Under the pieces are notes generated by a model that had not been told where the DNA came from, made no database searches, and worked only from the letters and a program-made list of their open reading frames with translations. A DNA stretch of 48,125 nucleotides, taken from positions 1 through 48,125 of the forward strand of contig NIVC01003419.1 of assembly GCA_002269645.1 (NCBI GenBank). The letters are read 5' to 3'. The position numbers and the translations under genes are program-made. Below, piece after piece: positions 28,648-29,020 of the stretch. Origin of the DNA: Macrostomum lignano (taxonomy: Eukaryota). Each line of letters begins with the position of its first letter. Positions within the stretch are counted from its first letter, which is position 1.

Positions 28648-29020
28648 ATGGGCAACGCACTGTCAAAACAGGCGCCCCAGCCTCAGCAGCTATATGACTG
28701 CCCGATATGTTTAACTGATGACTTGGCTGTCAAGCCACCGACTATTTGCATCAACGAACATAAAGTTTGCGGACAATGTTTAAGCGATTCACATTATATT
28801 CAGCCATGGCAGAATTGTCCCCTCTGTAGAGATAGTTTGCGACAATGTGCCTATTGTTATTCTTGGCACGTTTCAATATTGTAACCACCAACATTTTATT
28901 TGCATGCACTGTTTGAAGCAAACCGCTAGTAGGGGCGTTATAGGATGCCCCTTATGTAATAGTATGCCGCGAGACTGCACGTTTCGAAAGTGGTGTCGGA
29001 TCAAACCTGATGCCACTTGA
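28648..29020 (+). CDS. Small accessory ORF: N-terminal MGNALS (myristoylation-type) + two tandem C3HC4-type RING fingers; frame break at ~28860
   Basis: RING1 CPIC-x12-C-x3-H-x2-C-x2-C-x12-CPLC lies in ORF 28648-28884. CAYC then continues in the +1 frame as LGTFQYCNHQHFICMHCLKQTASRGVIGCPLC...stop 29020. Confidence 0.75.

Follow-up and report, generated by a model that had tools for sequence, protein, structure and literature searches.

Accessory genes outside gag and pol have been described in several groups of LTR elements, including the ORF3s of bdelloids (PMC5408684), the aORFs of plants (PMC7264820), sORF2 of the insect element MDG1 (PMC11952523) and CERV of the nematode element Cer1 (PMC10309623). 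According to the accessible text of these four papers, such third ORFs resemble the genes described here in being accessory, in lying outside gag-pol and in being often spliced, and MDG1 sORF2 shows that myristoylated accessory proteins occur in Gypsy elements. The products named in these texts are esterases, exonucleases, membrane micro-fusogens and an RNA-export factor, and none is reported there as a RING ligase. Term searches of PMC7264820, PMC6338049 and PMC5408684 for RING, finger and ubiquitin returned nothing. The giant gypsy element Burro/GYPSM1 of planarian flatworms (PMC6431247, accessible part) comes close in another respect, since it combines a flatworm host with an in-frame env between gag and pol and with mononegavirus-type matches. 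Its cargo is tied to ubiquitin or apoptosis (MATH, BIR, BCL2-like, Ubi/SUMO-like, and an AIR1 motif labelled RING), but this cargo lies inside or ahead of the polyprotein, whereas the genes of the present family are separate and stand behind the integrase.

In Macrostomum lignano, the catalogued Mlig_errantivirus_2 (PMC13524379, accessible part) agrees with the element studied here in LTR length, in the primer-binding site and in a gB-type env between gag and pol, but the 3' RING cassette of our element is not described for the catalogued entry. The words RING and ubiquitin are absent from the main text and element table of PMC13524379, and the word RING from the accessible text of PMC12801592, which treats the LTR elements of this species. 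The element itself is therefore already catalogued, and its RING genes are undescribed in the literature searched. A first-pass annotation of this DNA had named no such gene as known in Gypsy elements, and no paper on a RING accessory gene there came up in our search either; subscription papers, Repbase notes, some preprint supplements, the 2020 Macrostomum LTR classification and the supplements of PMC12801592 lay outside its scope.

The window, that is, the whole stretch of DNA that was analysed, comprises 48,125 nucleotides of M. lignano contig NIVC01003419.1. The element in it has the following parts:

19455..19458: target-site duplication CGTG, with its second copy at 30065-30068
19459..20322, plus strand: 5' LTR, 864 bp, TG...CA, TATA box at 19671
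20325..20336, plus strand: primer-binding site (PBS), 12 bases equal to those of the catalogued Mlig_errantivirus_2
21040..28527, plus strand: gag-env-pol, encoding Gag with a CCHC knuckle, Env, protease (PR), reverse transcriptase (RT), RNase H (RH) and integrase (IN)
29186..29200, plus strand: polypurine tract (PPT)
29201..30064, plus strand: 3' LTR, 864 bp

The LTRs, PBS, PPT and PR-RT-RH-IN order are those of a GAG-ENV-POL Ty3/gypsy errantivirus, and the env between gag and pol is of class III type, labelled ENV_HSV in the catalogue entry. The two LTRs are 100% identical, and the RT is 100% identical to that of a public Macrostomum lignano polyprotein record. Eight small gaps break gag-env-pol in the window copy, and a single frame of 2,498 codons is present in two of 13 sister elements. 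The Pfam order along this polyprotein is CCHC knuckle, Monjiviricetes fusion glycoprotein, protease, RT, RNase H and integrase; the fusion glycoprotein match (PF24664) is under the cut-off at E 1e-5 and has a hydrophobic segment on either side, at about residues 620 and 1216. A long acidic Gag linker leads to Env, which shares the frame of Gag and protease and stands between them (21040-25311). As previously annotated, Gag starts with MARRNP at 21040 and has no Gly2. Late-domain-type motifs were found in Gag itself, PPPY in two lineages and YPAL in another.

Three tandem copies of a CBM_21 gene (glycogen-targeting PP1 subunit-like; 22-552, 4670-5791 and 11345-12466, minus strand) are 95-97% alike, and exons of a DEG/ENaC (ASC) channel gene (16072-18176, minus strand) lie about 1.3 kb from the 5' LTR. 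Just past the 3' LTR, a retroviral-type protease motif was recognised by eye on the minus strand (30169-30500), and the window element seems to have landed within or next to an older LTR element. Long tandem-repeat arrays with units of 8, 21, 23, 28 and 40 bases occur in 31000-44000, and an inverted repeat pair lies within them (36750-37277 and 42600-43520).

The accessory gene and its parts are located as follows:

28648..29020, plus strand: RING-A gene as shortened in this subfamily; unbroken sisters encode 124 aa, full-length genes 216-222 aa
28648..28668, plus strand: N-myristoylation-type start MGNALSK, restricted to one clade
28699..28830, plus strand: RING1, C3HC4, with an invariant C-P-x-C-R, predicted to be E2-activating
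28846..28957, plus strand: RING2, C3HC4, without the linchpin Arg, interrupted in the window copy
28865..28867, plus strand: frame break, two bases short, private to the window copy
29010..29151, plus strand: site at which about 1.06 kb is missing relative to longer sisters, namely the helical domain of RING-A and the entire RING-B gene

The location between integrase and 3' LTR is as first annotated: the ORF sits 120 bases 3' of the integrase stop (28527) and 5' of the 3' LTR (29201). Its ATG at 28648 indeed gives MGNALSK (Gly2, Ser6) and then a C3HC4 RING whose Cys codons span 28699-28825. The frame opened by this ATG stops at 28884, and the remainder of RING2 continues in another frame to 29020. 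A second RING had been proposed across a frame break at about 28860; this RING is present, but the break lies at 28865-28867. The sister copies, to which the annotation had pointed for settling the frame, all lack the break (13 of 13 compared over the internal region). Nine such small gaps are peculiar to the window copy, and one-base gaps of the same private kind occur in most sisters. Since the LTRs are identical and the sisters show such gaps of their own, the break is probably a consensus error in repeats, with a private lesion as the other possibility. A DNA search of the own genome, in which 40 of 136 candidates were scored and 30 loci taken for comparison, found both RINGs in one frame at 27 loci; this frame is 124 aa long at 15 of them, 144 aa at 6 and 222 aa at 4, and it ends after RING2 at 2. 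The frame was broken earlier at the other three, window included. The RING pattern did not occur in any of 200 shuffled versions of the element sequence.

The window ORF is one member of a RING gene family located 3' of the integrase in a young GAG-ENV-POL Ty3/gypsy lineage. At full length (~220 aa) the gene encodes two adjoining RINGs followed by about 115 residues of helices, and the predicted models of the full protein and of the helical domain reached pLDDT values of 85.8 and 84.5. An element carries one, two or three paralogs in a row behind the integrase, and the place of this cassette is constant in at least five lineages whose RTs differ by up to 18%. The LTR pairs were 99-100% alike in the five distant lineages checked. 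Over gag-pol, the likeness between the window subfamily and a two-gene sister is 99.6%, but the subfamily is short of the ~1.06 kb and thus without the RING-A helical domain and without the second gene (RING-B). Copy number was counted from 20 further example loci and 10 earlier ones, and protein searches of the own genome gave at least 151 matches each (150 scored of 213 and 214 candidates).

For diversity, 18 full-length proteins were picked from 45 distinct ones. The tree separates first-position (A) genes from those in later positions; support for this split is modest (94/86), and the Logan proteins sit on long branches. A profile search of 1.84 billion proteins yielded 127 matches at E 0.001 and six at 1e-10, the latter being a Macrostomum gene model, four Logan proteins and one Sina-like repeat protein. 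All four Logan proteins have both RINGs and three are full length; the remaining profile matches are mostly single RINGs. Since two full-length Logan homologs that we tested are at most 42% and at most 33% identical to anything scored in the own genome, the family, judged by these identities, likely extends to other lineages or species. When five of the RING proteins were looked up by exact match, none was present in the collection.

Rearranged copies of the cassette were also observed. Three loci (L046, L047 and L049) have alike first RING genes followed by different second genes, which suggests swapping of cassette parts by recombination. One cassette of three RING genes, at L044:2389-8174 (also C1063), has an LTR but is severed from pol; it adjoins Polinton-like genes (Pox_A32 ATPase) on the opposite strand, probably as a nested insertion. 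At L052:5949-6404 (C1704, with equal scores for C66 and C3805), a RING-B gene with an internal stop has no intact RING-A or pol nearby, and RING-B-only copies of this type are possible non-autonomous derivatives. Six contigs of G000 (C2121, C1130, C87, C272, C4009 and C1405) hold many nested same-strand family copies or fragments with RING cassettes and look like piRNA-cluster loci.

Both paralog classes are under purifying selection with an omega of about 0.16. The three estimates were 0.156 for 7 sequences, 0.163 for 5 and 0.161 for 9, with 2dL against omega 1 of 280, 234 and 440, respectively, so the accessory ORF proposed in the first-pass annotation is a real, selected gene in related copies. 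All 16 zinc ligands are invariant in the 18 full-length proteins, which share 20-93% identity, and so are P58, R61 and a WP motif. The cassette nevertheless changes faster than pol. In one element pair, dN and dS were 0.18 and 1.5 for RING-A against 0.018 and 0.52 for integrase and 0.006 and 0.36 for RT; in another pair with equal dS (0.35), dN was six-fold higher in RING-A. A three-class test found no site class with omega above 1 (2dL -0.2 and 0.8 for 7 and 5 sequences, a comparison of low power). Duplication, swapping and faster change of the cassette would fit a host-facing role. The window's own subfamily, the most numerous young one, has spread without the helical domain and RING-B, and the full cassette is therefore dispensable in cis; this success, together with the absent positive site class, weighs against a strict arms race.

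The chemistry of the two RINGs differs. Pro after the seventh ligand and Arg after the eighth are present in RING1 of 22 of 22 proteins, and that Arg is present in RING2 of none. In RING E3 ligases, this Pro and the linchpin Arg are the residues of E2 contact and activation, and from RING biology we take RING1 to be the E2-activating module and RING2 to be structural or substrate-binding. As to hallmarks, the C-P-x-C-R end of RING1 bears out the earlier suggestion of an E3 ligase. The C3HC4 ligands and the RING fold are those of RING-HC E3 ligases, and the best matches of the family profile in the PDB were Ring1B, SIAH1, TRIM5 and TRIM21 (E 3e-5 to 2e-4). Pfam RING matches stayed below their curated cut-offs, and B-type paralogs do not clearly retain the large hydrophobic residue that is usual in the helix of RING1. 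With the whole model, Foldseek found no match at E 0.001 in the PDB or BFVD; the helical domain alone gave a best Z of 6.8 (rmsd 3.7, 86 aligned) and a best Foldseek E of 0.94, and no fold was assigned to it. In the Atlas search, RING-A fell among generic viral RING clusters (0.90-0.91), and no usable match was obtained for the RING-B helical domain. On these sequence and model comparisons, E3 activity of RING1 is likely, and the proteins most likely work like a viral RING E3 ligase.

Comparison with cellular and viral RINGs places the family more closely. It shares with Sina/SIAH the C-x3-H spacing and the C-P-x-C-R end, and its nearest non-family matches are Sina-like, so the family may have arisen from a RING of the Sina type. 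Membership in SIAH/Sina was rejected: the Sina RING scored 15-22 bits against a Pfam cut-off of 29.3, the C-terminal domain is all-helical, and both the zinc fingers and the TRAF-like substrate domain of SIAH are missing from the flatworm proteins. An RBR ligase (RING1-IBR-RING2) was likewise rejected, as just 4-8 residues separate the two C3HC4 RINGs, and so was an sORF2/FAST-like micro-fusogen, which would combine myristoylation with a transmembrane helix, as RING-A has no hydrophobic segment. The AIR1 label applied to Burro cargo usually denotes CCHC knuckles and not a C3HC4 RING. ICP0 is known as a viral RING E3 ligase. The RINGs of herpesvirus ICP0, nucleocytoviruses and virophages are likewise virus-encoded C3HC4 domains, often in paralog sets, with weak fold or feature matches to ours; however, these large-DNA-virus matches extend over a single RING (E 0.009 or weaker) without the double-RING-helical layout, and the flatworm family is carried by a retroelement.

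The signals by which such downstream genes could be expressed are these:

19799..19804, plus strand: splice donor 1 (GTAAGC), about 125 nt 3' of the TATA box
20083..20084, plus strand: candidate acceptor for an LTR-internal intron (19799-20084), from one contig
20223..20228, plus strand: candidate splice donor 2 (GTAATT), with AAG/GTAA conserved across LTR lineages
28543..28608, plus strand: conserved non-coding box with a predicted hairpin (arms 28547-28553 and 28571-28577)

Donors had been named at 19799 and 20223, and a conserved GT is present at both places, in LTRs that are only about 77% alike. Three distant lineages (C583, C717 and C525) have a donor-like GGTAAG equally far from the TATA box, and the pattern was not found in a fourth. 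One contig of run X5 (related subfamily, depth 7) leaves the reference at donor 1, giving the intron inside the LTR. Ahead of RING-A, the 65-base non-coding box is better conserved than coding DNA and contains an invariant ACAG/CT; the hairpin covers the candidate acceptor CAG at 28576-28578 and shows two compensatory pairs, which represent few independent events in 9 sequences. This box may govern how much of the RNA stays genomic and how much is spliced, or may be a packaging or promoter element. Most downstream paralogs have a YAG within 2 bases of their ATG, and no ATG precedes 28648 in the LTR exons or post-acceptor leader of the predicted spliced RNA. The public gene model P0001 joins donor 1 exactly to a RING-B ATG; it is chimeric and may be ab initio, and its residues 58-73, at a second apparent join, did not map to the loci compared. 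Among the sequencing runs listed as containing the sequence, none was marked as RNA. Four contig sets, whose status as RNA is a guess, were compared with a two-gene sister; among the matches listed there was no LTR-to-RING joint, which does not count as evidence against such joints. Taken together, the conserved donors, the acceptors before each ATG and the one gene model make spliced mRNAs likely.

The start of RING-A bears on a different reading, in which the protein is a matrix-like myristoylated adaptor, an analogue of arenavirus Z that replaces the Gly2-less Gag. The first-pass annotation had drawn this comparison from the Gly2 start and from the Gag. What defines Z is the combination of late domains and one RING with a conserved myristoylation site (PMC3509680, accessible part), and a single clade of the flatworm family resembles it in having a Gly2 start followed by a C3HC4-type RING. 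Within that clade the motif MGNA(L/Q)S(K/R) persists: its G, N, A and S do not vary among lineages that are 68-75% alike, and the changes at Asn3 and Ser6 are silent, so that myristoylation there is plausible as a local address; the presence of an envelope gene also speaks for a matrix. However, Gly2 was found in 5 of 22 diverse proteins, all of one clade (support 100/99), a Gly2-to-Ser variant occurs at 2 of 30 loci, and orthologs outside the clade start with MANTFEC, MAKKFEC or MDC, at or just before the RING. These non-Gly2 lineages share the MARRN Gag start and have LTR pairs 99-100% alike; a non-myristoylated Gag therefore does not require a myristoylated RING. Where Z has a single central RING in 90-99 aa, the flatworm proteins have two RINGs and a helical domain, and neither the 124-aa nor the 222-aa RING-A contains a late domain (PTAP, PPxY, YPxL or YxxL). 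In the fold comparison that had been suggested, a wide search gave weak matches throughout: Z entries ranked 42 and 45 of 50 (Z 3.9, rmsd 2.8-2.9, 47-48 aligned), cellular RINGs scored 5.0-5.2, and arenavirus Z was absent among the best 60 of 105 profile matches in the PDB. Membership in the Z family was rejected on the myristoylation glycine, the late domains and the RING layout. Gag, lying ahead of the Env hydrophobic segment in the same frame, may moreover be membrane-tethered through it without a matrix protein. The RING proteins are thus probably not a virus-style matrix protein, the adaptor reading is highly improbable, and Gly2, where present, is on sequence grounds plausibly a clade-specific membrane address and not the core function.

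We favour the reading, to which we assign a probability of about one half, that the window gene is a shortened member of a RING-RING-helical accessory family, likely spliced, whose products are predicted ubiquitin ligases directed against a host restriction factor. Splicing of a transcript from the LTR promoter would join the 19799 donor, directly or by way of an LTR exon and donor 2, to the acceptor that precedes each RING gene; RING1 would then bind and activate E2~ubiquitin, and RING2 with the helical domain would bind a substrate or partner. In the most speculative step, the substrate would be a host silencing or antiviral protein that is removed or modified; given E3 activity, a host-defence substrate is somewhat likely. 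The accessible text of PMC4604429 describes an active piRNA pathway on transposons in the Macrostomum host. Put more boldly, and held only tentatively, this lineage of non-retroviral LTR elements would have built a swappable arsenal of ligases, one to three per element, for the destruction of host proteins of the piRNA pathway, of chromatin silencing or of antiviral defence. Every ligase would have a spliced RNA to itself, myristoylation would direct some of them to membranes, and the whole would amount to a Vif/ICP0-like counter-defence. The same RING evidence would also suit ligases or zinc adaptors serving the element's own cycle, by ubiquitinating Gag or Env for sorting or budding or by handling unspliced RNA. 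RING-A is basic (net +4 to +17), Cer1 makes a spliced Cys-rich CERV needed for RNA export and belongs to a lineage near the flatworm gB-type elements (PMC10309623 and PMC13524379, accessible parts), and purifying selection without a positive class suits a steady partner. Against such a role, the cassette is swapped, duplicated and trimmed next to a gag and pol that hardly vary, which is odd for a part obliged to fit the element's own proteins, and Gag has its own PPPY and YPAL motifs; we regard it as unlikely. A little more weight, though still on the doubtful side, goes to a functional family in which the 124-aa product of the window subfamily is a decaying remnant, its copies moving by trans help or cassette-free. 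The helical domain was lost in two steps (144 aa, then 124 aa) along with RING-B, several 144-aa copies have ligand changes and stops, and RING-B-only derivatives exist; yet the 124-aa frame with both RINGs is kept at 15 of 30 loci, and pairwise ratios among short forms (0.05-0.54) show more silent than replacement change per site, from very few changes, much of which may predate truncation. A chance ORF or passively captured host fragment without element function could be argued from the word-indexed homolog search of the 222-aa protein, which found no relative at E 0.01 among 93 candidates. We give this almost no credence, since it is refuted by the omega of 0.16 and by conservation, both in the fixed place of the cassette across lineages and in the distant full-length Logan homologs.

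Protein counter-defences from animal LTR retrotransposons are barely known. The RING family is intact, selected and multi-copy, and offers natural forms that differ in having or lacking Gly2, the helical domain or the second gene. The stem cells of the host flatworm depend on Piwi, and degradation of silencing factors by a transposon is directly testable there by RNAi and transgenesis. If the ligase reading is true, the substrates of these proteins would name host restriction factors.
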